In this document: positions 8,987 to 38,491 of the stretch, one piece after another
Position numbering within the stretch: the first letter of the stretch is position 1
Layout: every line of letters starts with the position of its first letter
Source: a virus
Lineage: Duplodnaviria; Caudoviricetes
Reading direction: 5' to 3' (one strand)
Length of the DNA stretch: 46,239 nt
Virus record (IMG/VR): IMGVR_UViG_3300014656_000008
Location: 1 to 46,239 of that record
Position numbers and translations under genes: made by a program
The notes under the pieces: model-generated
What the model saw: the letters and a program-made list of their open reading frames with translations, nothing else
Told to the model about the DNA's origin: nothing
Databases searched by the model: none

Positions 8987-9982
8987 ATGCCAGGACCGAG
9001 GCATCAGAACGACATCACGCGCATTATCGAGACGGATTATATACCCATCAGTCCCGATACATTGCAGCCCGAGACGGAGGGTGGGTTGGCACTGGAGCAG
9101 CACCAGGTGCGGATCTTGAATCATATATTTAAGCCCGTAGGTATGGGTCGTGGGCGTCCGAAGGGGTTGAGATACGACACCGTGATTTTTTCATGTCCCA
9201 AGAAGAGCGGGAAAACTGCGATACAGACCGGTGTATTATACGCCTGGGCAAGGACTTACGGTGGGGAGATATATTGTCTTGCCAATACCGAGGGGCAGGC
9301 CAAAGAGCGAGCGTATACCAGGCTGTATAACATGTTGAGGCACCTGGAGCGTACTAACCCGCTGCGGTATCATGCTGAGGTCGAGGACTGCCAGGCATTG
9401 GAGATCACGTTCAAGAATCCGTATGCCAAGGTGTATGTGATCCCGGCGATACCGGGTTCCCAGGCCGGGTCGTTCGTAAGTCTCAGTGCGTGGGATGAGT
9501 TGTGGGCATATAACAGGGAGGTTCTTAAACGGTTGTGGGCGGAGTTCAGTCCCATCCCCCAGCTTTTCGGGAGGAGTATGAGGTTTGTGACGACATATGC
9601 GGGCTATCTCGGGGAGTCGGAGCTGTTGTGGTCCATCTATGAAGCCATTGTGAAGCCTGACCCGCAGAAGGGCGACGAGCCGCAGGGCAATAAGGTCAAG
9701 GGGCTGGAGGATCTTCCCTGTTATGTAAGCGATGACGGCAGGACTTTCGTGTATTGGGATCATGTGCCTCGTATGCCGTGGCACACCCAAGAATTTCTGG
9801 AATCCCGGAAGACGGATAAGTCTATCCCGGCGCAGGAGTATTTGCGGTTATGGCAAAACCGGTGGGTTGCGGGTCAGGATGCGTTCATAGATATCGAGGC
9901 GTATGACGCCCTTGTGGTGAAGGGTAAGGCGATGGGCCTATTTAACCGCGCCACTTTCCCGGCGGATGTCCATGTAGCTTAG
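8987..9982 (+). CDS. terL: Terminase large subunit, ATPase domain only
   Basis: Q-motif-like HQVRIL, Walker A PKKSGKT, Walker B SAWDE, motif III FVTT, EYLRLWQNRW linker then stop; GAGG before ATG 8987; no nuclease domain. Confidence 0.85.
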   Translation: MPGPRHQNDITRIIETDYIPISPDTLQPETEGGLALEQHQVRILNHIFKPVGMGRGRPKGLRYDTVIFSCPKKSGKTAIQTGVLYAWARTYGGEIYCLANTEGQAKERAYTRLYNMLRHLERTNPLRYHAEVEDCQALEITFKNPYAKVYVIPAIPGSQAGSFVSLSAWDELWAYNREVLKRLWAEFSPIPQLFGRSMRFVTTYAGYLGESELLWSIYEAIVKPDPQKGDEPQGNKVKGLEDLPCYVSDDGRTFVYWDHVPRMPWHTQEFLESRKTDKSIPAQEYLRLWQNRWVAGQDAFIDIEAYDALVVKGKAMGLFNRATFPADVHVA

Positions 9983-12595: not shown

Positions 12596-12615
12596 GGTGC
12601 TCCTCCTCTGTTATG

Positions 12616-12667
12616 GCCTCATCAGCACGGGTCCATCCCGTGAACGCCCCAGGAGGGGCGTTTCGGC
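12616..12667 (-). ncRNA. Type II hammerhead ribozyme HH-a
   Basis: Minus strand: gcc GAAA cgcccc-ucc u-ggggcg UU cacggg-augga-cccgug CUGAUGA ggc; complete core, NUH triplet GUU. Confidence 0.9.
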
Positions 12668-12671
12668 AGGG

Positions 12672-12926
12672 TCAGCGACGTCCGTCTCTCACGTCACTGA
12701 CCGACAGTGCCGAGCACGTCGGCCCGTAGGGATGATAGGAATGCCCCTGCCGATCGTGGAATATACCGTCTGCATCCGAGACGAGGAGTGTGCGATCGCT
12801 ATAGCCTCCCTGTCGCTGGCAGCCCCGGTGATCCTTATCCAGGCAGGCCTCGACCGCTGCAACTATCCTGTGGAGATGGCGGCATCCGCCCCGGACGCTG
12901 CCCCAGGTGGTATATACTGCATGCAT
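12672..12926 (-). CDS. Hypothetical protein
   Basis: GAGGAGG RBS; GSVRGGCxHxH...GYSDR motif. Confidence 0.65.
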   Translation of the reverse strand: MHAVYTTWGSVRGGCRHLHRIVAAVEACLDKDHRGCQRQGGYSDRTLLVSDADGIFHDRQGHSYHPYGPTCSALSVSDVRDGRR

Positions 12927-12952
12927 CTCGTCCTCCTCTGTTAGGATGCCTA

Positions 12953-13147
12953 CTATGCAACTTCGTGGATGTACGCAAGCGCTTTGATGATCTTCCCGAG
13001 GTCGGCAATGGCAATACGTACAGTTTCCTCGGGGTCAACATTGGGATGTTTATCTGCAACTGTCTGGAGATCATACTGCAGGTTGCGCAACTTTTTAATG
13101 TTGGCATTCAGCGCAGTTGCGCTGAGCTCGTCCATACCTGCTTTCAT
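12953..13147 (-). CDS. Small helical hypothetical protein
   Basis: GGAGG RBS. Confidence 0.55.
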   Translation of the reverse strand: MKAGMDELSATALNANIKKLRNLQYDLQTVADKHPNVDPEETVRIAIADLGKIIKALAYIHEVA

Positions 13148-13194
13148 CTCGTCCTCCTACTAAGTGGTAGTTAGCGCAAGCTCTTGCGCATGGG

Positions 13195-13449
13195 CTACAG
13201 AGCTATTGTCTCAACATAGGGTGGCAGTTCCCGGCCTGGAGCTAAGTCCGCAGCCGTCAAGTATGGCCCCGCAGAGATGGGCCACAGAAATCCACGTCCG
13301 CCACCGGCCTTGCGAGCGGCACGGTCTAGAGCCCGTTCTGCCGCTGACCTTGTAGGGAAATAGGTGCGCCCGTGTTTGGCCCGGTTGCGATACAGCCGGG
13401 TGGCTTGAGAGCTACCAGTCAGACTGATTGCCGCGCCATAGATCGCCAT
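13195..13449 (-). CDS. Hypothetical protein
   Basis: GAGGAGG RBS. Confidence 0.55.
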   Translation of the reverse strand: MAIYGAAISLTGSSQATRLYRNRAKHGRTYFPTRSAAERALDRAARKAGGGRGFLWPISAGPYLTAADLAPGRELPPYVETIAL

Positions 13450-13476
13450 CCTCTTGTCCTCCTCTTCGGGTGTGTG

Positions 13477-13683
13477 CTACCATGCGCACGGCATATACCC
13501 TGCCTCAATGGCGTCCGCTTCCCTGTTCTCGGCTACCCATGCGCTCCAGCACTCGGTGCACTGGGTGAACTTCCCCTTGCGGGCGTACCCAATGGTGTCA
13601 CCCTTGCGGATCTCATGACCACAGGTCCCCCGACTGTGAAAGCGGGCTGTGATCTCGGCATAGTCGGAATACCTTGCGCTCAT
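13477..13683 (-). CDS. Small Zn-ribbon-like protein
   Basis: ARFxSxGTCGHxIxKGD...CxxC; GAGGAG RBS before ATG 13683. Confidence 0.65.
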   Translation of the reverse strand: MSARYSDYAEITARFHSRGTCGHEIRKGDTIGYARKGKFTQCTECWSAWVAENREADAIEAGYMPCAW

Positions 13684-13694
13684 CTCGTTCTCCT

Positions 13695-13898
13695 CTAGCC
13701 GTAGATGTGAAACGTGGACCTTGGGTTGTTCACTTTCTCCGAAGCGATACCACAGAGCCACTGGTCAACGTCGGCCTGGTCTGCAGGCGAGTCTATCGCC
13801 CCCTTAAGCCACTGTAGATACTGTTTCCAACATGAGGCAAATAGGCGGTCTGTACCGTCGAAATTCGCGCGCGCGGTCTTGCGGTCTGGGATTATCAT
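13695..13898 (-). CDS. Hypothetical protein
   Basis: GAGGAGGAGG RBS directly downstream of a hammerhead. Confidence 0.6.
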   Translation of the reverse strand: MIIPDRKTARANFDGTDRLFASCWKQYLQWLKGAIDSPADQADVDQWLCGIASEKVNNPRSTFHIYG

Positions 13899-13919
13899 GG
13901 CTCCTCCTCCTCGGTTATG

Positions 13920-13971
13920 GCCTCATCAGTACCGGGCTGTCCGGCAGACGGGCCCCCAGGCCCGTTTCGGC
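13920..13971 (-). ncRNA. Type II hammerhead ribozyme HH-b
   Basis: Minus strand: gcc GAAA cgggcc-uggg-ggcccg UC ugccgg-acagc-ccggua CUGAUGA ggc; GUC triplet; stems covary with HH-a and HH-c. Confidence 0.9.
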
Positions 13972-13976
13972 ACACG

Positions 13977-14225
13977 TCAGGCGGTGAGATACGGCGTGCG
14001 GTAAAGCACCTTGACCAGATGGTTCCGGACTTCATCGCGCGTCCACGCAGGGCTAAGACGGACGCCATGCGCTAACTCCATACCTGCAGGCGCCTCCGAA
14101 GCAACATCCAGCTCACCCGGCGCATAGTATGGATAGAACGCCCCCCATTCATTCATGCTCTGCTTTCGATACCATAGATCCGCAAGTACCGCTGCGTCCG
14201 TATGCATGTTCTGTGTCGCTGTCAT
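13977..14225 (-). CDS. Hypothetical protein flanked by two hammerheads
   Basis: GAGGAGG RBS before ATG 14225. Confidence 0.65.
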   Translation of the reverse strand: MTATQNMHTDAAVLADLWYRKQSMNEWGAFYPYYAPGELDVASEAPAGMELAHGVRLSPAWTRDEVRNHLVKVLYRTPYLTA

Positions 14226-14247
14226 GGCTACTCCTCCTCTACGTTGG

Positions 14248-14299
14248 GCCTCTTCAGCGTGGGTCCATCCCACGGACGCCCCAGGAGGGGCGTTTCGGC
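14248..14299 (-). ncRNA. Type II hammerhead ribozyme HH-c
   Basis: Minus strand: gcc GAAA cgcccc-uccu-ggggcg UC cguggg-augga-cccacg CUGAAGA ggc; GUC triplet. Confidence 0.9.
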
Positions 14300-14304
14300 G
14301 CGGG

Positions 14305-14593: not shown

Positions 14594-14765
14594 GCGAAAT
14601 CTGCGGCAGGAGAAGAGAAAGGTCCACTGGACCCTGTACCCCCGGCGTAACCGGCCCCCGGAAGCATGGTTTTGGGGCATATGACCCACAAAAAATGCGG
14701 GACGTGGAGCCTACAGCTCGGCGCCTTCCACCCTACGCTCCAACAGCTTGGTATCAAGCTCGGCA

Positions 14766-14793
14766 AGTTTACATATGAGATATTATCAACGGT
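14766..14793 (-). other. dif-like XerC/D recombination site
   Basis: ACCGTTGATAA-TATCTC-ATATGTAAACT; 11-6-11 layout; right arm matches TTATGTAAACT at 10 of 11 positions. Confidence 0.55.
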
Positions 14794-15172
14794 TGCCGGT
14801 TCAATATTTACAAGGGTTTACGTCGATTGACCACCAAGTGGAGGGCCCGACCCCTACAGGTTGTGGGTGCCCCGGCCCCTCAGGAGGCGCTTGCCGCCAG
14901 GCCTGCTCCCCCCCAGGGGGCCGGAAGCGTTTCCCGTTTGGGGTATGGCTATGGGTCCCGATTCCGTGCCGGTGTTCATTTCAGCCAGTTGGTATGTCTT
15001 CGAAGGGGTCTAGGGCGCGCTGGTGCTGAAATGCGTCACTGTGCGGTTGTCCCGCTTGGTGGCAGGAATGCGCCAGTTAGCTGTGGTGTCTCTGCTCTGT
15101 GTGCGGTGTTGTCGTAGCCCGATGGTGGTGTTGCGGGGGTAGTTTTAGGGGGTCCACTGGTGGGTGTGGAAT

Positions 15173-15224
15173 GTTCTGTAACGGTTCTGTAACGGTTTGA
15201 CAAAGTTCGAAGGTGCTCTATAAT
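15173..15224 (+). promoter_or_regulatory. Consensus promoter preceded by tandem 11-bp direct repeats
   Basis: GTTCTGTAACG x2 abutting TTGACA-16 bp-TATAAT. Confidence 0.75.
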
Positions 15225-17660: not shown

Positions 17661-18582
17661 CGCCGGTGTCCTCCTTCCTCGGGATATTCCGCGCCCACGG
17701 CATCCATAACAGATTGCGTGCCTTGAAGCCGAATTCATCTTCTGGTGCCACTTCTTCTTCCCACTCTGCTAGCAGCCGCACGACCTCGGCGAGGCGACGC
17801 TCCAGAGTCCGCATGTCCTGTGCTTGTGCTAGGATTAGTTCTTTGTCGGCCACAGACCCACTGCGCTCCAGGACCTCGTTGTTGTCACCCCCGCCGGTGG
17901 GTTCGCCAAGTTCGGCATACTTGTTATCGTCACTCCATGCGCCTGTGTAAGACTCCGGCAGCGGCGTCTTATACTGCGGATGAAGCTCAGGCAACGGGGC
18001 TATGTGAGCATCACCGCTATCACAGCAAGAGTCACCACCACCGCCACCCATACCACGAGCAACATCTTCGTTCCCGCACTCATCGCTCCCGTCCTTTCCG
18101 CCCCGGAGGGCCGAAATACCGTCAAGAAGATGCGCCACCGCTTTCTGCTCGGCGGATAGCCTGCGGTCGGCTTTGGCAAGAGCTTCCCTGGCCTGCGACA
18201 GTTCACTGCGCAAATCCACCACGTAGTTCTCTGGCTGGTAACTCTCACCGTCCAGAAATGCTCGCAGCCGCTCGTTGTCGGCGCGGAGGCGGGCTGCCTC
18301 CAAATACCAGTGCTTATACCGGCCCCTCAACCGGTTCGATAGTTGCTCCCGATCCGCCTCGGCTTTATCCTCCAAAACTATTTCCTCGCACCATGATGCG
18401 GGTAGTGCTTCGGCATGATCGCTCATGCCTCTGATCTGCGCCTCCGCATCACGCAGGGCGGACTGTAGTTCCCCGATGATGCGGATGGCACAGTCTCCTG
18501 CGCCCTCGCTCTGTGACGGCTCCCCTTCCACGTTGGCCATGATGTAGTTGGCCAACTTCTCGGTCTGGTCACTCGCACTCAT
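17650..18582 (-). CDS. Coiled-coil hypothetical protein, probably a mosaic fusion
   Basis: 310 aa; contains an internal copy of a gene-junction repeat at 18081-18111. Confidence 0.55.
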   Translation of the reverse strand: MSASDQTEKLANYIMANVEGEPSQSEGAGDCAIRIIGELQSALRDAEAQIRGMSDHAEALPASWCEEIVLEDKAEADREQLSNRLRGRYKHWYLEAARLRADNERLRAFLDGESYQPENYVVDLRSELSQAREALAKADRRLSAEQKAVAHLLDGISALRGGKDGSDECGNEDVARGMGGGGGDSCCDSGDAHIAPLPELHPQYKTPLPESYTGAWSDDNKYAELGEPTGGGDNNEVLERSGSVADKELILAQAQDMRTLERRLAEVVRLLAEWEEEVAPEDEFGFKARNLLWMPWARNIPRKEDTGDGA

Positions 18583-18835
18583 CGCTACCTCCCTCCTGCT
18601 CGGCGGCCATCTGCTCCAGCCGCATTACCATCCCTTTGGCCGTAGCCTCATAAGGCGGCTCTTTGAGTCTCTGTATGGCCTCCCGCAGGGCGGACTTTCG
18701 CACCCAGTCGGCAAAGCTGTAGCACGAGTCGCAAAATGGCCCTTGCCCACCATCAAGATAAAGGGAACCATCGCCCATTCCTGCTTTACCTGTCGGCTGG
18801 TCACATTCACAACATCGCTCAATGCGTTCACCCAT
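18569..18835 (-). CDS. Small Zn-finger-like protein
   Basis: CxxCDQPTG...GPFCxxC; AAGGAGG RBS. Confidence 0.6.
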   Translation of the reverse strand: MGERIERCCECDQPTGKAGMGDGSLYLDGGQGPFCDSCYSFADWVRKSALREAIQRLKEPPYEATAKGMVMRLEQMAAEQEGGSDECE

Positions 18836-22276: not shown

Positions 22277-22921
22277 TCATCGCGTCTCTGAAGCGGCAAG
22301 ATACTCGGCCAGGCACTCGGTCTGCCACTTTCTCTCGGCGACGCCAAATGCGGCGGCCCATGCGGCGGCGTCGGCGGTCCATGCGACGGCTCGTGCGGCG
22401 GCCCATGCGGCGGCCCGTGCGGCGGCCCATGCGGCGGCCCGTGCGGCGGCCCGTGCGGCGGCCCGTGCGGCGTCAAATGCGGCGGCCAATTCCCCATCAG
22501 TTGCCTCTCCGTTTGCATATCGTCGCGCTACCGCAATGCAATCCCGTGGCCGCTTGTCGTCAGGGTGTTGCTTCTCGAACAGATGCAGCACGTGTTCTGC
22601 GCAGTCGCAGGCAAAAAGGCGCGCAGTCCGCTCGTTCCACGCTTCGATCCGCTTGATGAGACGGGCTTGGCGGACCACGATCTTGTCGGGGTGGTCTATG
22701 TAGTCTCCCTTTGCTTCGGCAATCCATATGGCTGGACCGAGCCAATTCACCAGATGCTCACGCTTACACAGATGGTAGCCATTCTTGCACGGCACCAGAT
22801 CCCCAATAATGGGCGGCATCCACTTGCCGGGGCGCTTGCCCTGCGGAAGATGCCAGGTCCCTTTGCCACCGTTGTGGGCTGAACTGTTTTCATTTAGCAC
22901 CTTGTACAGCACATTGCTCAT
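22277..22921 (-). CDS. Phage hypothetical protein with Imm5-like domain and Ala-rich AAAR/AAAW repeats
   Basis: CxNGYHLC, RLFACDCAEHVL...DKRPRxxIxxARxYA; 12-bp tandem repeats at about 22350-22490. Confidence 0.7.
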   Translation of the reverse strand: MSNVLYKVLNENSSAHNGGKGTWHLPQGKRPGKWMPPIIGDLVPCKNGYHLCKREHLVNWLGPAIWIAEAKGDYIDHPDKIVVRQARLIKRIEAWNERTARLFACDCAEHVLHLFEKQHPDDKRPRDCIAVARRYANGEATDGELAAAFDAARAAARAAARAAAWAAARAAAWAAARAVAWTADAAAWAAAFGVAERKWQTECLAEYLAASETR

Positions 22922-22970: not shown

Positions 22971-23279
22971 TTATCTCCTACTCCCCCTGTGATAGTTCCC
23001 ATGGCATCGCCTGCACATTAGCGTCACGTCCTTGTGGATGTCCTCGTGGAACAAAGTCAGATAGTGCCGGTGATGAGGACATAGCTTCTCCTTGCGGTCA
23101 CAGAGCACGCAGGACCCGTAGAGGGCAATGGTTACTTTCGTAAGTCTCTTGAAGTGCTCTGTCTTCTCGTACTTCGCCCGATCCTTGGCGTCCGGCCACC
23201 GCTTGGAACCCTTGCGGCCCAGAGACAGGAGGCGCAGGACAAGAGCAGCGTCCAGCCTCTGACTGAAAGGATCTGTCAT
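22971..23279 (-). CDS. HNH endonuclease
   Basis: CxxC...HHRHY...D...CxxCH. Confidence 0.75.
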   Translation of the reverse strand: MTDPFSQRLDAALVLRLLSLGRKGSKRWPDAKDRAKYEKTEHFKRLTKVTIALYGSCVLCDRKEKLCPHHRHYLTLFHEDIHKDVTLMCRRCHGNYHRGSRR

Positions 23280-24115
23280 GCGTAGGCCCTCAGCTTGCAC
23301 TCCAGCTTCTCCTTGCCGTGGTTAGCGATCTGCCGGACTCTCTCCCTGCTGATGCTATCCTCTTCCCCGAGCTCGCGCAAGCTCTTGCGCGGACCATCGA
23401 ATCCGAATATCCCCTTCACATACCGTGCCTCGCGCTCCGGCAGAGACTCTACCACGTCGCTGATGCGCTCACACAGGTCCTGCTCTGCTACGTCATCATC
23501 GGGCATAACGGCGTCTGGATCGAAGATGGTTTCATCCCATCGGATATCGTGATGTCCTCCGGGACTGGTTCTGCTGTGCTTAGGGTGATCAAGGCTCAGG
23601 TAGGATCTAAAGGCGCAGCACGCCCGAACCACTCGGGCCATAGGGATACCGGCAAGCTTTGATACTTCTACGAGCGAAGGTTCCGTCTCGTGTTCGGCAA
23701 AGTACTGGTTGCGGGTTTTGTAGATCTTGCCCATATCGTTCCTGACATTGGCGGGAACCTTGACGTTGTAATTGGTACCTATCGCGGTCTCTATGGACTG
23801 CCGTATCCAGTAGACGGCATAGCTGATGAACCTGATGCCTCTGTCCGGGTTGTAGCGTTTCACGGCTTCTACAAGCCCCACGTTGCCGTAGCCGATGCGA
23901 TCCTCCAAGGGCAGTCCGCATCGACGGTGGTAGGAGTGCGCCACCTGAACTACGAAGCGCAGATGGTGGGTGATGAACTTTTGCTCTCCCGGTGTCAGCT
24001 CGCGCTTGTGCCCCTTGGGGCGGTTGGCGAGCAGGGCTTTCTGCTGCTCGTCCGTCAGGTGCTCGTAGCCGCCTAGATCGGCGTAGTAGTCTTCAAGACT
24101 GCGGGGAAGTTGCAT
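23276..24115 (-). CDS. RNA polymerase sigma factor, RpoD/RpoS-like
   Basis: Region 2 HLRFVVQVA...GNVGLVEAVKRYNPDRGIRFISYAVYWIRQSI; region 4 SLRELG...ISRERVRQI. Confidence 0.92.
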   Translation of the reverse strand: MQLPRSLEDYYADLGGYEHLTDEQQKALLANRPKGHKRELTPGEQKFITHHLRFVVQVAHSYHRRCGLPLEDRIGYGNVGLVEAVKRYNPDRGIRFISYAVYWIRQSIETAIGTNYNVKVPANVRNDMGKIYKTRNQYFAEHETEPSLVEVSKLAGIPMARVVRACCAFRSYLSLDHPKHSRTSPGGHHDIRWDETIFDPDAVMPDDDVAEQDLCERISDVVESLPEREARYVKGIFGFDGPRKSLRELGEEDSISRERVRQIANHGKEKLECKLRAYA

Positions 24116-26348: not shown

Positions 26349-26660
26349 TCAGGTTTCGATCCTAACCGCAACCGCCTCGTCGGGATATGGGGGCTCTGTG
26401 GATAAGCGCATCGCCCAGTATCCGGGCCCGGGGCTGCGCCAGCAGTGGACTCGCGAGATACCAAGTTGCTGCAAGTGCTCCGAGAGGTATGAGGTGCTCA
26501 CGGTCGGCATCCCGCACCAGGTGGGCCCATCGCACATGCTAGCTCCGGCTTTTCGGAGGGCCTCCTGGACCGGTTGGGTCATCCTGTACGAGCCCATATT
26601 CCACTCATGTCCATGGCGTTGGGCCTCCTTGACCGCCTCGGCTATTGTCTGTGTGGTCAT
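26349..26660 (-). CDS. Hypothetical protein
   Basis: GGAGGAG RBS before ATG 26660. Confidence 0.6.
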   Translation of the reverse strand: MTTQTIAEAVKEAQRHGHEWNMGSYRMTQPVQEALRKAGASMCDGPTWCGMPTVSTSYLSEHLQQLGISRVHCWRSPGPGYWAMRLSTEPPYPDEAVAVRIET

Positions 26661-26697
26661 GATTCTCCTCCTGCAGCCGCTGGTCCGCGCCCCTGCT

Positions 26698-26792
26698 GTG
26701 CCCTCCGCTCGGCATACGCCAGCCAGCTCTACATCCCGAGGGCCTGTAGCACACCTCCATCGCGGAACCCCCACCAGCACTTCCAGCGGCTA
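26698..26792. repeat. 95-bp perfect direct repeat, copy 1
   Basis: Identical to 27119-27213. Confidence 0.95.
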
Positions 26793-27113
26793 CGAGACAA
26801 GCCGTGCTGTGGCTTAGTAGCCTGGCCGTCCCCCCACAGCCTCAGCTTTCGGGTCGTCTGGTTCCCCACCCGTTGGGTCTTCAGGGAAGCGGCAGGCCAA
26901 TATCCAAGCCCAGTGCTGTCCCATCTTCTTCCGACCGAGTTTCGCGTGAGCGGTGTCGCCGCCAGGCTCGTTGTGCCAGACTTGCGTCCGGTTTCGCTTT
27001 ACGCGTGCTCGCTCACGTTTCCCCGGTCGTCGGGCCGAGTGCTTTCTGTTACTCGGTTTACCCAAGTGTGGTCTGCCTCCTTGAACCCTACTCAACAGAG
27101 TCGGCTTGTCTCG
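26793..27113 (-). ncRNA. Candidate ~320-nt multi-stem structured RNA (domain A)
   Basis: 12-bp closing stem CGAGACAAGCCG/CGGCTTGTCTCG; nested stems cgaccggg/ctcggtcg, gtgagcg/cgctcac, ccggac-GCAA-gtctgg, ccgagt/actcgg, gctgtgg/ccacagc. Confidence 0.65.
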
Positions 27114-27118
27114 GTTCA

Positions 27119-27213
27119 GTGCCCTCCGCTCGGCATACGCCAGCCAGCTCTACATCCCGAGGGCCTGTAGCACACCTCCATCGCGGAACCCCCACCAGCA
27201 CTTCCAGCGGCTA
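27119..27213. repeat. 95-bp perfect direct repeat, copy 2
   Basis: Identical to 26698-26792. Confidence 0.95.
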
Positions 27214-27216
27214 TGT

Positions 27217-27416
27217 TTGGGCGATACGGCTTGACTTGGGGTTTCTTCGCGGTGTCCGTGTTCACCGATCAACCGGCGTTCTCACGCACGTCCCGCCCAC
27301 GCGGATAAATGATCGTCACCATCGGGCCTGCTTGCCACATTCTTTCCCACGTAGCCCTGCAGTTGGCTAAGGTACCCCGGATGGCAACTCCGTTCACGCC
27401 AAGCCCCATCGCCCAA
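27217..27416 (-). ncRNA. Candidate ~200-nt structured RNA (domain B)
   Basis: Closing stem 27217-27233/27400-27416 (15 of 17 pairs); inner gcgt-GAGA-acgc, tagcc/ggcta, ttgcca/tggcaa, cggtg/caccg. Confidence 0.55.
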
Positions 27417-27529
27417 TGTCAAAGAACGCAAGTCTTGCGGGGTGCGGCAGGCGTTTTGACCCAGGAAACGGGGGCTGTGATGCGCGCACAACCCTCTTTT
27501 GTGGTCGGATGCTCTGCCGCACCCCTTGT

Positions 27530-27814
27530 CTACCGGCTGTGAATCCGAAGGTGATACCACAACCGCTTCGCCGTCCGCTCATCGGGGTGCTCCTGTATCA
27601 CCTCAAACAGGTTCCCCAACACCGCCTTAGCGCCACCCTCAGACAGGTTCTCTACTAGCGTCTTGTAGATGTTGGCGGCGAAGTCGTGCTCCACCCAACG
27701 GCGGTGCCTCCAACCGTCGGCGGCTCTGGCGTTGTCCACGCCACACGTGCAGCGGAAGGACTCGAAACCGCAGTCCAGGCAGGTGCCCGTGTCAGTTGAT
27801 ATGGCCGAGTTCAT
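27530..27814 (-). CDS. Small Cys-containing hypothetical protein
   Basis: CxxC...CxC; in the operon. Confidence 0.5.
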   Translation of the reverse strand: MNSAISTDTGTCLDCGFESFRCTCGVDNARAADGWRHRRWVEHDFAANIYKTLVENLSEGGAKAVLGNLFEVIQEHPDERTAKRLWYHLRIHSR

Positions 27815-28446: not shown

Positions 28447-28578
28447 AATTTAAGCCTTAGTCTTTGCTATGTCAAGACAAATCTTTGCTATCGGGAGAAA
28501 AAAGTAGGGTGCCAACATCCCCCATGCGCAAGTCTTGCGTATTTGCCCCTTGACAAATCAGGCACCTGCGGTTAAATT
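28447..28578. promoter_or_regulatory. Divergent sigma-70 promoters with candidate operators
   Basis: Leftward TTGACA-17-TAAATT (28475-28447); rightward TTGACA-17-TAAATT (28550-28578); TCTTTGCTAT direct repeats at 28461 and 28482; palindrome at 28526. Confidence 0.8.
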
Positions 28579-29250: not shown

Positions 29251-30030
29251 TCAGGGGGTGCTTCTCGATGGGTCTGCCCACGGCAAGGCTAGCCTTCCAA
29301 GAACGGGAGGAGTGCCGACGTGCCCCGCAAAACGGTCGGTGTCGCACCACACTTCGAAGCCCTTCCTCCAAGCGCGGTAACAGTAATAGAGGTCTTCAGT
29401 ACCCGTCTTGGGCATCACAAAATAGGGCTTGCCCAACAAATGCTCCTCGTGGAACGACGCCTTGTCATCGAGATCGACATACCGTGGCATATCGGGATCG
29501 GGAATCCCCTTCTCGGTGAAGACTCTCCTCTTGATAAGCATGCAGTGTGTCCCGATGCCTTCTACCTGTATCATCCCCTGATCCATCTCGGCATCGCGCA
29601 GGTTTCTGAGATTGTCCTGGTTCCAGCCGTGGAATTCATCCTTCCACACCTTGACGCAGATTTCCCACGGCTCCTCGGGAGACCCCGTAGGAAAGCGCCC
29701 TACATACGGCAGGCCGATGATGTCCTTGTCCCATACCAGCATCCGCTCCAGGAAGTCCTGGGGGCATACCGCGTCGTCGTCCAGCATCAGCAGATGGCTG
29801 TAGCTGCCCGCCAGAAAGTGCTCCACGAACTCGGTGCGCACGAACTGAATGAACAGCCGCTTGCCGGGGATGATGTCATACGGGATCTTCCGTGCGTCCC
29901 ACCTCCTGAACAGGTTGGTGTGGTTCCACCGTACCTTATCATTCACTACCGCCGTATAATTCGGCATCCCTACGAGGATTTTGAGGGTAGCTTCTTGGCG
30001 ATCTTCGCTTCCGTTCCCCACGTTCTGCAC
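29251..30030 (-). CDS. Glycosyltransferase, GT-A fold (GT2-like)
   Basis: ILVGMP start, HLLMLDDD motif, GTHCMLIKRRVF, EDLYYC...GFEVWCD...GH; start uncertain. Confidence 0.85.
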   Translation of the reverse strand: MQNVGNGSEDRQEATLKILVGMPNYTAVVNDKVRWNHTNLFRRWDARKIPYDIIPGKRLFIQFVRTEFVEHFLAGSYSHLLMLDDDAVCPQDFLERMLVWDKDIIGLPYVGRFPTGSPEEPWEICVKVWKDEFHGWNQDNLRNLRDAEMDQGMIQVEGIGTHCMLIKRRVFTEKGIPDPDMPRYVDLDDKASFHEEHLLGKPYFVMPKTGTEDLYYCYRAWRKGFEVWCDTDRFAGHVGTPPVLGRLALPWADPSRSTP

Positions 30031-30503
30031 GGGAATACCACCTTTCCCATAGGATAGTTTCTGCCTACCTTCTCGGGATGCCTCTTGATCCGGTCCTTGT
30101 AACTGCCCCCACGGATGGGACTGCGCTTCCTTCGCCCTTCCGGCATGGGTTCGGGAAACTTCTTGCCCCAGTACTGCTTTCTGTACTCACTCGGGGAGAT
30201 GCCGTGCCACGCCTTGAACATCTTGTGCAGATGCCCCTTACCGTCCCACAGGCCGATGCGCCAGGCGATCTGATTCATCGTAAGCCTATGATCCCGCAAG
30301 AGTTGACGCGCTGCTTCCATACGCTTCTTCGTTACCAGAGTACACCACGATTGGCCGATGTGGATGTGGCAAGTGTACTCTATTGCGCTCTTGGGCCACC
30401 CCTCTGCGGAAGTGAGCTCTCCCGGTTTCAAATTCCGTCGGTAGTTGGCATTGATAAACGCCAATATTCGCCGCGCCCGCTCCATTTGGTCTATTTTTGC
30501 CAT
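29970..30503 (-). CDS. AraC-family HTH protein (DNA-binding domain only)
   Basis: ILAFINANY...RMEAARQLL...IAWRIG...FKAWHGISPSEYR. Confidence 0.85.
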   Translation of the reverse strand: MAKIDQMERARRILAFINANYRRNLKPGELTSAEGWPKSAIEYTCHIHIGQSWCTLVTKKRMEAARQLLRDHRLTMNQIAWRIGLWDGKGHLHKMFKAWHGISPSEYRKQYWGKKFPEPMPEGRRKRSPIRGGSYKDRIKRHPEKVGRNYPMGKVVFPCRTWGTEAKIAKKLPSKSS

Positions 30504-30576: not shown

Positions 30577-30615
30577 TCCCATTGAGGTCTACAAACCCTA
30601 AACTTGGAGGTCGCT

Positions 30616-30954
30616 ATGCCGAAAGTAAAGGGAACACCGCTGGGAAGCCATCTGCTCGTACTGCCGGATGTTGAGGAGGAAGGTATCATTATCAAGCCCA
30701 GCACCGCCATCAAGGACCGCCCCCAGCTCGGGACGGTACTCGCCGCAGGTCCCGGCAAGGTCCAAATGATGATGGTCAACGGCGAACCCAGGGAGGTCCA
30801 CCTTCCTATGGGGACAAAGATCGGCGACCGCATTCTCTTCGGGCGCTATACGGGTATCGAGATGAAGCTGTCGGGGCAGGATGTCATCGTGATGAGTGAC
30901 GAAGACGTGATCATGGTCGTGGACGCCGACGCGGAGGCGGAGCTGTTCGAGTGA
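30616..30954 (+). CDS. groES: Co-chaperonin GroES
   Basis: PLGSHLLV...GIII...GTVLAAGPG...KIGDRILFGRYTGIE...MSDEDVI. Confidence 0.9.
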   Translation: MPKVKGTPLGSHLLVLPDVEEEGIIIKPSTAIKDRPQLGTVLAAGPGKVQMMMVNGEPREVHLPMGTKIGDRILFGRYTGIEMKLSGQDVIVMSDEDVIMVVDADAEAELFE

Positions 30955-31346: not shown

Positions 31347-31504
31347 TCAATTGGAAATGGGATAAAATTAAAAGAACGCGCCCGATGGATAAAGATAATC
31401 GTCCTGTTTACGAACGTTTCGGGATGACGAAAGAGAAATTTCTTGCTCTCAACGAGTGGATGTTGAGTCTTCCAAAAAGGCGACGAATGGAAAGACCCCA
31501 ATGA
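31343..31504 (+). CDS. Small basic hypothetical protein (53 aa, not in the ORF track)
   Basis: MINWKWDKIKRTRPMDK...MERPQ; ATGA overlaps on both sides. Confidence 0.5.
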   Translation: MINWKWDKIKRTRPMDKDNRPVYERFGMTKEKFLALNEWMLSLPKRRRMERPQ

Positions 31505-32076
31505 ACCTGCTCCCTGAAAAGCCCCTGCTGTGGATCGGCTGGGACCTGGGAATACGCCGCGATACCACGGGCCTCATAGCCGTCTACCGGGAGCCGAAGT
31601 TCAACTGCTATTGCTACTGGGGCCACGTATGCCTTCGGCCCCCGGTAAGGGTCCGCGATGCCACGAATATCATCCGCCACTGGCTCCGGACGGAGCGCGT
31701 AGGCGGAGTTTTTTTTGACCGCTGGCAGTTGATGGGCGAGGCGCAGAGACTTGCAGAGGAAGGCTATGGCGATATGCTGATCGAGGTGGATCAGTCCACG
31801 CAGTCCTCGGCGTTCAGCAACAACCTGAAGGCTATGCTGGATGAAGGGGAAATCATCCCCTATGAGAACGAAGAGGTGCGCAACCACCTGAAATGGACGA
31901 ACATCATGGTGGGAGAAAGAGGCTGGCGCATCGTCAAGCAACGGCAGTCCCGGCACATCGACCTTACCGTGGCACTGGCTATGGCGCTGTGGGGAGCTGT
32001 TCAGGATACGTCGCATCTGACGCATACGGCATACCGGGAGCGCACCCACGTCCGCAGTATCGTGCAGGTAGCGTGA
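31501..32076 (+). CDS. terL: Terminase large subunit, RNase H-like nuclease domain only
   Basis: WIGWDLGIRRDTTG, VFFDRWQ and HIDLTVALAMA motifs; ATG 31501 is coupled to the upstream stop. Confidence 0.85.
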   Translation: MNLLPEKPLLWIGWDLGIRRDTTGLIAVYREPKFNCYCYWGHVCLRPPVRVRDATNIIRHWLRTERVGGVFFDRWQLMGEAQRLAEEGYGDMLIEVDQSTQSSAFSNNLKAMLDEGEIIPYENEEVRNHLKWTNIMVGERGWRIVKQRQSRHIDLTVALAMALWGAVQDTSHLTHTAYRERTHVRSIVQVA

Positions 32077-36629: not shown

Positions 36630-37625
36630 ATGCCAGAAGAGACTGCGGGCGGTAAAGATAGGGCAGAGCAGACTGTCCAGGCACCGACGCCGGGTGCCGC
36701 AACCAAAACCACCGGTTCTCCTCAGTCAGACCCGTCCGCTGGCGCGGCAGTCCAGCCGGTAGGAGACGGTGAGCGTGAGAAGTGGATACCACGTGAACGC
36801 TTCGATGAGGTGAACACCAAAGCGCAGCAGGCCGAAGCGAGGCTATCGCAGCAGCAAACACAGATTGTGCAGATGGGGCAGGCGATCCAGAACTTGAGTT
36901 CGAGGTTGAATCGTCCCGAGCCCCAACCTTCAGGGCCGACGGAAGATCCTCTCGAAGCCCTGAGACCCGCCTATGGTTCCGAAGAAGAAGGGGGAACGAA
37001 GGTATTCGAGACGGTAACGAAGACAGCGCGTATCATCGCCGAGCAGCAGGATAAGGCTCTCGAAGCGAGGCTGGAGCAGAGGCTGGAGCAGATCATCAAC
37101 CAGCGTGTCGGCGGGGTCACGGCGACACTCACCGTCAACAACGACATCGTGCAGATGCAGCAGAAAGGACTCCTCAGTCAGCAGGAAGCTAATACGCTCG
37201 CATCTCGTGTGGCGGCAACGGTGCAGGAGAATCCCGATTGGCAGCCGCATCAGCAGTTGCTGCTGTCGGATTACTACCGCCGTATGCAACTCGCCGGTGA
37301 GATCAAAGGAACCCAGCCGATGGTACAGCCCAAGGGGACGAAACCTCCGATGATGGCTGCCGGTGGCGGCGGTGGCAACAGGTCTATGCCTTCCCAGCAG
37401 GCGGATTCCAAGGCGGCGATGATGGAGGAAGTGCGGCAGATCAAGCGGATGTTCCGCAACACCTTCGGTGCTATGTCTGACGAGGATGTGGCGAAGTACT
37501 ACATCCCGCCTACCGATGGTGTGGGTGTTGCCACCACAAAGGATGGGGCATTCCAGCTTCCTGCGGATGTGGCGGGCAACGTAGGTGACGCCAAGATCGT
37601 CTACCAGCATACGAGAGAGAGGTGA
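36630..37625 (+). CDS. Capsid scaffolding protein
   Basis: Disordered N-terminus, IPRERFDEVN motif, coiled coils; upstream of the capsid genes. Confidence 0.75.
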   Translation: MPEETAGGKDRAEQTVQAPTPGAATKTTGSPQSDPSAGAAVQPVGDGEREKWIPRERFDEVNTKAQQAEARLSQQQTQIVQMGQAIQNLSSRLNRPEPQPSGPTEDPLEALRPAYGSEEEGGTKVFETVTKTARIIAEQQDKALEARLEQRLEQIINQRVGGVTATLTVNNDIVQMQQKGLLSQQEANTLASRVAATVQENPDWQPHQQLLLSDYYRRMQLAGEIKGTQPMVQPKGTKPPMMAAGGGGGNRSMPSQQADSKAAMMEEVRQIKRMFRNTFGAMSDEDVAKYYIPPTDGVGVATTKDGAFQLPADVAGNVGDAKIVYQHTRER

Positions 37626-37633
37626 GATCCGAT

Positions 37634-38491
37634 ATGGCAGAGCCAGGAAAGCGTGGGCCGGGACGCCCCCGCAAAGACGAAGCCGTCAGCGAAACCGCGC
37701 AGGAAGCGCGGGATGTCGCCGACGCCAAGGCGGATCTCGCCGAGACTTTCGTGCCGGAGATGTCGCTGCTGGATAAGGCGGCGGAATTCGTTTACCGGAA
37801 GTCGCCGGATCGGCAGACGTGTCCGCTGTGCGCGGGCAGATACGGTGTTGGGGAAGAGACGCTGGCGTTGATGACGCACCTGAAGCAGACGGAGAAACAC
37901 CGGGATGCGATGTTCGCGTGGTTCTTGCAGCCCGAACTCGGTCCTAATGCGTGGGCTATCATCAGCAAGCAGAAGTCTCAGGACGAGGCCTACGACCCCG
38001 AGGACCCGGAGCTCGAAATCATCGAAGACAACCTGAATCCCAACTTTCTTTCCATCCCGCACAGCACCAAGAAGAAGCTGGATCTCGGTGCCCGTGTGGG
38101 GCGGTGGATAGCGCCCGGCAACGTGCGCAAGCGGATGTCACAGGGCTATGTTTTCGAGGCTAGGCCGGAGAACGAGTCTTTGGACTGGCAGCACGATCAT
38201 ACGGGGACGCAGATGCGGGCCAACGAACTGGTCTATATGACGGTTCCGCGCAAGCTCCACGAGAAGCGAAAGCGGCTGAAGGAACAGCGCAACCAGGACA
38301 TCTATGACCGCCTGCCGGCGTCCATCGAGCAGAAGAGCCAGAAGCTCACGGACGTGGGGCAGGAGACGTATGACGCCTATGCACGTATGGGTGTGCCGCA
38401 CGAGGCGGCGATGAAGCTGGCAAACCGGGCGGAAAAGGAGGGGCACGTGATTCGGCCCCGTTCCGAGAACGCCGTAATTCATCAGCGGTAG
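37634..38491 (+). CDS. Head-module protein with an N-terminal AT-hook-like motif
   Basis: KRGPGRPRK; CPLC...H...H possible Zn finger; RWI...GY...LVYM segment. Confidence 0.6.
   Translation: MAEPGKRGPGRPRKDEAVSETAQEARDVADAKADLAETFVPEMSLLDKAAEFVYRKSPDRQTCPLCAGRYGVGEETLALMTHLKQTEKHRDAMFAWFLQPELGPNAWAIISKQKSQDEAYDPEDPELEIIEDNLNPNFLSIPHSTKKKLDLGARVGRWIAPGNVRKRMSQGYVFEARPENESLDWQHDHTGTQMRANELVYMTVPRKLHEKRKRLKEQRNQDIYDRLPASIEQKSQKLTDVGQETYDAYARMGVPHEAAMKLANRAEKEGHVIRPRSENAVIHQR

Follow-up and report, generated by a model that had tools for sequence, protein, structure and literature searches.

What occupies some 800 nt of a phage early region in which no convincing gene can be read, and why does the same 95-nt sequence stand there twice? 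We addressed these questions in a window of 46,239 nt, the whole stretch of DNA analysed, which is a whole tailed-phage genome in one contig with 123-nt terminal repeats and annotated capsid, portal, terminase, endolysin, sigma-factor and replication genes. A search for close relatives found none: capsid relatives reach 65% identity at best and carry PF10124, called gpT-like by one source. The region of interest was present in 6 of the 13 runs listed, all six being groundwater metagenomes by record and belonging to five studies, with three of the six flagged as possible sources of the assembly; no RNA run was listed as containing it.

The large terminase of this phage is split, with an ATPase gene (8987–9982, plus strand) and a nuclease gene (31501–32076, plus strand) ~21 kb apart and the whole early region between them, and relatives keep the split with 1–3 kb of variable genes between the two parts. 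The genome also holds a sigma-70 factor gene (23276–24115, minus strand; ~36% alike to its nearest relatives), GroES (30604–30954, plus strand), an AraC-type regulator (29970–30503, minus strand) and a gene with an Imm5-like domain that contains tandem 12-nt repeats (22300–22470). A second gene-poor stretch (14600–15200) is flanked by divergent promoters (14593 leftward, 15197 rightward).

Stem-closed domains and their predicted folding

The locus lies in the leftward early region between two small genes and, read on the minus strand, runs C, palindrome, B, R1, A, D (27525–26673, ~850 bases), where the letters denote domains each closed by its own stem and R1 and R2 are the two repeat copies, R2 lying within D:

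28447..28475, minus strand: sigma-70-like promoter reading leftward, 10/12 consensus, the likely source of a transcript that would cross the array
27530..27814, minus strand: 94-aa gene, function not assigned, with its stop codon 5 nt ahead of domain C
27439..27525, minus strand: domain C, 87 nt, perfect 12-bp closing stem (p=1.00) and inner 8-bp hairpin
27427..27439, no strand assigned: palindrome copy, also terminator-like (5-bp stem, T-rich tail)
27217..27416, minus strand: domain B, 200 nt, closing stem of 10+8 bp around one mismatch
27119..27213, minus strand: upstream repeat copy R1, identical to the first 95 nt of domain D but lacking the 3' strand that closes D
26793..27113, minus strand: domain A, 321 nt, perfect 12-bp closing stem 27113–27102/26804–26793
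26698..26792, minus strand: downstream repeat copy R2, the 5' part of domain D
26673..26793, minus strand: domain D, 121 nt, R2 plus 25 unique nt, an irregular rod
26349..26660, minus strand: 103-aa gene, function not assigned, with a strong ribosome-binding site directly after domain D

An initial annotation, made from the letters, had seen no convincing gene across ~800 nt here, and both a codon model of the phage and the missing ribosome-binding sites bear this out: all nine ORFs across the region scored negative and all nine lacked such a site, the codon test being a soft one in that 3 of 12 likely neighbouring genes also fell at or below zero. On these codon scores we rejected a protein-coding reading, though a gene caller had predicted a 188-aa plus-strand ORF. 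A TTGACA at 27422–27417 was likewise rejected as a promoter for B, there being no -10 box.

The same annotation had described a cassette of two closed domains, and while A and B are real, C and D had been overlooked. Domain A, with its perfect 12-bp closing stem and nested helices, was recovered as described, its predicted fold being a four-way junction whose nested helices stand at p 0.9–1.0, whereas the 17-bp closing stem given for B, real in itself, computes as 10+8 pairs around one mismatch. The closing stem of D comprises 11 bp (26793–26783/26683–26673, p=1.00) and ends at the ribosome-binding site of the 103-aa gene. Between the two tetraloops proposed, GCAA was recovered (helix p=0.96), while no GGAA-capped helix of at least three pairs occurs among the predicted helices. 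The word CAAGCCG/CGGCTTG, said to lie in both closing stems, lies on the 5' strand of the stem in A and on the 3' strand in B, with an imperfect partner. Apart from a helix word AAGCC/GGCUU (three occurrences vs one expected), no shared sequence was detectable among A, B, C and the repeat.

Folding scores against shuffled sequence gave z = -5.2 for A, -3.8 for B, -5.4 for C with its flanks, -1.65 for D, +1.4 for the repeat and -1.3 for the whole 791 nt; once closing stems were removed, A fell to -2.5, B to -0.3 and the C interior to -0.6. Stem-closed control windows elsewhere (n=80) offer a fairer comparison, and as 3 of them beat A and 11 reach B, the folding signal of B is weakened. Only 1 of 300 dinucleotide shuffles, and none of 102 other genome tiles, gave four adjacent domains with closing stems of at least 10 pairs, under thresholds set after the region had been seen. 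In a coarse folding scan of the genome, tiles 18401–18600 and 37601–37800 stood at z -5.7 and -5.1.

The palindrome between C and B is likely a DNA-level, protein-binding site and not part of the RNA. It belongs to a set of 11 copies of CGCAAG-N1/2-CTTGCG spread through coding and non-coding DNA, mostly 2–4 kb apart in the early region (11242, 13175, 17070, 19935, 21646, 23376, 24131, 27427, 28527, 33491 and 36241), and a search of 88 other loci, of which 80 belong to related phages, found none. A hairpin at 27418–27460 carrying GCGCAAG, earlier counted as part of the cassette, does not hold: the leading G is missing, the sequence is one of the 11 genome copies, and 27450–27439 belongs to the stem of domain C instead. 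A related phage (L119, 3200–8400) is dense in inverted repeats and short palindromes.

The reading that we prefer, tentatively and at a rough probability of 0.45, is that of a four-domain RNA array whose domains would be released by nucleases as stable small RNAs acting as decoys or scaffolds, with the 95-nt repeat as the footprint of domain A's insertion. Bacterial RNA decay combines cuts in linkers with trimming up to stems, the basis of the proposed release. An early polycistronic transcript would cross the whole array leftward, C, B, A and D would fold side by side, each closed by a stem of 11–18 bp, and host nucleases would cut the short linkers and trim up to those stems, leaving RNAs of ~87, 200, 321 and 121 nt that may serve as protein-binding decoys or scaffolds, by analogy with the role supposed for GOLLD and ROOL (PMC12286853). 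In favour of this reading, A is well folded and the module borders coincide with the stems; against it, B and C without their closing stems do no better than shuffles, D reaches only z -1.65, and stems of 11–12 bp are short for double-strand-specific RNases. No processing enzyme or binding partner for the array RNAs was identified.

The 95-nt repeat: insertion footprint or processing element

The direct repeat itself was confirmed at 100% identity: its two copies (26698–26792 and 27119–27213) lie 421 nt apart and form the longest internal exact repeat of the genome. The earlier observation that each copy starts within 0–3 nt of a closing stem also stands, with 0 nt after A's stem and 3 nt after B's; domain A begins 5 nt past R1 and ends 0 nt before R2. 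Because D's closing 3' strand occurs once, R1 is a truncated D and R2 lies within a whole D, such that the repeat would be the 5' four-fifths of D and is not clearly a free-standing module.

We consider the repeat likely to be the footprint of domain A inserted as a cassette ahead of D, the cassette comprising A plus the linker 27118–27114. The simplest history would lead from B-D to B-R1-A-D, with A having brought a copy of D's 5' part along or having recombined through one, and this history may be compatible with a function for R1. Repeat-flanked accessory cassettes of tailed phages are termed 'morons', and one was found in a comparison set of 26 loci collected through the stand-alone terminase nuclease gene, where sister-lineage phages carry a one-gene cassette between perfect 33-nt repeats at a spacing of 527 nt (loci L096, L097 and L099), for example:

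L099, 2801–3360: 33-nt-repeat cassette, just upstream of the terminase nuclease gene

The same site is empty, with one copy left, in two loci (L098 and L100), and these filled and empty sites provide a direct precedent in the lineage for an insertion footprint. The lineage cassettes and the array are alike in that an exact direct repeat brackets 0.3–0.5 kb between genes; they differ in that the repeat here is three times longer, the cargo is non-coding and the empty site was not seen, as no relative searched holds the locus and no deletion joint was listed in four runs. At 95 nt and 100% identity, far above the 33-nt precedent, the repeat itself could be under selection.

Shorter repeats occur too, in that the early region contains five pairs of exact 20–24-nt repeats, 181–1941 nt apart, three of the five overlying ribosome-binding sites and one being shared by two hammerhead ribozymes. 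Such pairs are possible module borders. Three of the following four lie over ribosome-binding sites:

17475/17656: exact 20–22-nt repeat pair
18092/18844: exact 20–22-nt repeat pair
22177/24118: exact 20–22-nt repeat pair
22255/22949: exact 20–22-nt repeat pair

The initial annotation had instead proposed the repeat as a stand-alone processing element. In its fullest form, taken as a self-cleaving ribozyme whose class is undescribed, or else as a nuclease site, with the cut near its own 5' end, the repeat would trim the 3' end of the preceding domain, much as phage tRNAs are trimmed by theta ribozymes, and set free a 421-nt unit of repeat plus A, which a host ligase could circularise. We regard this as unlikely, though it deserves to be kept in play. 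The position of the copies, 0–3 nt after a closing stem, resembles that of theta ribozymes, which lie within 5 nt of a tRNA end (PMC10879173), and the phage does use self-cleaving RNAs, carrying three intact type II hammerheads (E 1e-6 to 6e-8, cores read):

14300–14242, minus strand: type II hammerhead
13972–13915, minus strand: type II hammerhead, the only one of the three to pass the Rfam gathering score
12668–12611, minus strand: type II hammerhead

Each of the three sits between a stop codon and a ribosome-binding site, as R2 likewise precedes one, and two of them share 24 identical bases; a hammerhead search of 21 related records gave no match, with controls equally silent. The enrichment of ribozymes near other ribozymes and Mu-like phage genes (PMC10085705) can be set beside the PF10124 of the capsid relatives. 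These hammerheads keep a new-ribozyme reading alive at a low probability, but they lie 12–14 kb from the array, behind another promoter.

The fold of the repeat counts against this reading. The pairings drawn for it, a CCGCT/AGCGG outer stem and a CTACA/TGTAG hairpin with a loop-to-tail pseudoknot, exist but are thermodynamically disfavoured, the pseudoknot-compatible fold having -7.7 kcal/mol alone and -23.2 kcal/mol when completed vs -33.8 kcal/mol for the best nested fold, a deficit of ~10 kcal/mol before any pseudoknot bonus is counted. In R2, moreover, the 11-bp stem of D occupies the 5' strand of this fold at p=1.00. In favour of the ribozyme, a twister-like topology (outer stem, inner hairpin, loop-to-tail pairing) occurred in only 1 of 1000 shuffles of the repeat, with a descriptor that was fitted to the repeat and that, one pair looser, matches ~60 places in the genome.

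Comparison with the known self-cleaving families gave partial likenesses. Twister type P1 (RF03160) shares with the repeat an outer stem, an inner hairpin loop pairing with the 3' tail and a UA step 5' of the stem, and stems P2/P4 with T1 (L4–L1) can be drawn in the repeat, although 47 of 300 shuffles also meet this loose form and the fold is energetically disfavoured. T2 of twister forms from a conserved GC after P2 (PMC5408937); the repeat lacks P1, lacks that GC and hence T2, and has a different L4 (PMC5408937 and PMC6154101). A descriptor for T2 with the conserved L1/L4 bases had 0 matches, as had RF03160 at E<=10, and no other Rfam ribozyme reached that value in the repeat. Theta (minimal HDV-like) ribozymes resemble it in placement, no more than 5 nt from the 3' end of an RNA closed by a stem (PMC10879173), whereas the repeat is longer, has no tRNA and, by strict criteria, no nested double pseudoknot; the strict HDV-like/theta descriptor, built on the consensus of a nested double pseudoknot with a catalytic C in J4/2 and G1 at the cut, had 0 matches in the repeat, and a loose one had 8 and 2 matches, with 62 of 200 shuffles also matching loosely. 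The hammerhead core CUGAnGA was absent from both repeat copies in tests that recover the three true hammerheads. Clustered hammerheads flanking phage operon genes are known (PMC3088659), and the phage has such an arrangement at 12611–14300; the array, too, is a repeat-bounded module in the leftward early operon, but with a 95-nt repeat that lacks the hammerhead core and with an RNA domain, not a gene, as cargo.

An analogy to retrozymes, also drawn at first, fails. LTR retrozymes likewise have a non-coding middle between identical direct repeats (here with a 421-nt unit; PMC7761336), but the repeat carries no hammerhead, the differing flanks show no 4-bp target duplication, and the present case is a prokaryotic virus with no reverse transcriptase: PF00078 had 0 matches in the phage genome with controls positive, a host enzyme still being possible. 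RtcB had no match in the phage genome either, which also counts against the ribozyme reading. Taken together, the placing of R2 as the 5' part of a 121-nt closed domain, the disfavoured pseudoknot, the absent cores of known ribozymes and the repeats of the lineage cassettes demote the stand-alone element from leading reading. A bolder version, in which the repeat would be a new ribozyme class that frees stem-closed RNAs, yields a 421-nt circle and also acts as a recombination anchor swapping domains between phages, seems to us slightly less likely again.

Alternative readings of the locus

Instead of separate domains, the region might form one continuous large RNA, in which R1 and R2 swap strands and a long rod, built together with D's tail, carries A at its tip, the duplication then being a structural device. 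An unrestricted fold of 27535–26640 does pair the R1 5' strand with the tail (p=0.88) and R1 with R2 over several helices (p 0.63–0.88). This fold disappears, however, once pair span is limited to 350 nt, and such exchange is expected of any self-complementary sequence when duplicated; the whole 791-nt region has only z -1.3 and no promoter or terminator brackets it, leaving the continuous RNA improbable in our view.

A more local reading would have D act in cis on the 103-aa gene, as a leader that governs its translation or stability, and would make C the structure at the 3' end of the upstream mRNA, with only A and B as independent RNAs or remnants. The stem of D, ending at the ribosome-binding site, and the start of C 5 nt past a stop codon with a terminator-like hairpin following are consistent with it, but the predicted fold of D leaves the ribosome-binding site unpaired, no riboswitch family matches, the terminator-like hairpin is the genome-wide palindrome, and terminator-like sites are not commoner than in shuffles (3 vs 2.4). 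We would give it poor odds.

Chance has also to be weighed, namely a neutral or DNA-level duplication in intergenic DNA with stems that are partly fortuitous. Perfect stems of at least 11 bp enclosing 60–600 nt arise ~4 times per shuffled genome, z<-3 is reached by 5% of 440 tiles, and the interiors of B and C are unremarkable. Set against this are the rarity of the four-domain tiling, the many nested helices of A at p>=0.9, and the persistence of the sequences: A was found in all four runs examined, with no joint skipping it among the joints listed, and the core of B (27331–27396) recurs in pieces, at ~80% likeness, within low-depth contigs from two other runs (X4 and X5). Those contigs run on into unrelated flanks; record 19 of X5 has 7 differing letters and 6 gaps relative to the B core, and the changes listed, at 27358–27368 and 27378, fall, as judged by eye, chiefly in the loops of a putative UAGC/GCUA hairpin and of a small one next to it, which we treat as a lead and not as covariation, five of the seven substitutions not being shown. 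A 41-nt match to the B-repeat junction (27189–27229) in one X4 contig may be chance and was left unused. On balance, a neutral origin has a slim chance.

That the duplication is an assembly artefact is scarcely credible: although no examined contig spans both copies and the contigs alone would be compatible with a separate repeat-plus-A DNA circle, contigs from other runs speak against it, three of the four repeat junctions being bridged with at least 31 letters on each side in three runs not flagged as source (X4 record 10, X5 record 16, X6 record 22), the fourth being seen in X1, X5 and X6 as a graph overlap of 30 nt, and the repeat forming in X1 a separate 95-nt piece at depth 33 vs 20–21 for A and both flanks, where depth is not copy number.

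Known RNA families and the proposed array

Returning to the four-domain array, we compared it with known RNA families and with related phages. In a search with Rfam 15 covariance models, which the initial annotation had suggested, no family matched, the array giving only unrelated weak matches at E 3–10, and its judgement that the locus is not GOLLD, RNase P, tmRNA or a group I intron was upheld by the models. GOLLD (RF02032, with a conserved 3' domain), which is often found near tRNAs, had no match, and no tRNA lies nearby or elsewhere in the genome (0 tRNA genes by ARAGORN); RNase P RNA (RF00010, marked by its P4 pseudoknot) had none either, with controls above cut-off in 8 of 14, nor had group I introns (RF00028, marked by a P3-P7 core), and tmRNA or tRNA was found in the array by neither ARAGORN nor Rfam. 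ROOL (RF03087) gave 0 matches to the array in a search where control genomes gave none either. Likenesses of motifs seen by eye to RNase P, group I/II introns, SRP RNA, glmS and tmRNA were dropped after the model searches, and a c-di-GMP-I-like match in A (E 5.6, 11 bits vs a cut-off of 59) was set aside as a shared loop motif or chance.

Homologues were sought equally widely. Exact-pattern scans of viral contigs returned 0, 1, 0, 3 and 4 matches, all 8 judged chance by reading and blastn, a metagenome scan returned only the phage's own contig and GTDB genome scans nothing; as these scans demand exact matches, their blanks do not show absence. By blastn against phages and plasmids only short matches appeared (E>=0.9), and blastn with nhmmer over 88 and 26 loci gave no homologue of the array, as was also the case when records of related phages (27 and 22, most of them fragments) were searched in full by blastn. 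When the repeat was run as a covariance model over the genome, 99 loci and 30 records, only its two known copies came up. These searches gave neither a homologue nor an empty site. None of the papers listed in literature searches, PMC6765202 and PMC10690425 among those consulted, gives an account of a phage RNA flanked by such repeats, a prior listing in the IMG/VR RNA alignments of PMC10690425 being possible.

These results support a structured, non-coding and so far undescribed minus-strand region in a phage that uses self-cleaving RNAs, and our overall verdict is a credible undescribed phage RNA array, whose processing and function are those proposed above. Like GOLLD and ROOL, it would be a multi-branched non-coding phage RNA of several hundred bases whose function is not known (PMC12286853), but those are each one conserved fold, whereas here four domains are closed separately and an exact repeat lies inside the array, with no tRNA and no model match. 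The finding rests on one genome, which is its weakness. Large phage RNAs without known function are few and have yielded surprising structures (PMC12286853). If true, this locus would add to them an undescribed large phage RNA of separately closed domains, in an array that can apparently take up a complete RNA domain in cassette form, as phages gain accessory genes, and the 95–121-nt candidate would offer a cheap test for a new ribozyme class, with the phage's own three hammerheads as positive controls.
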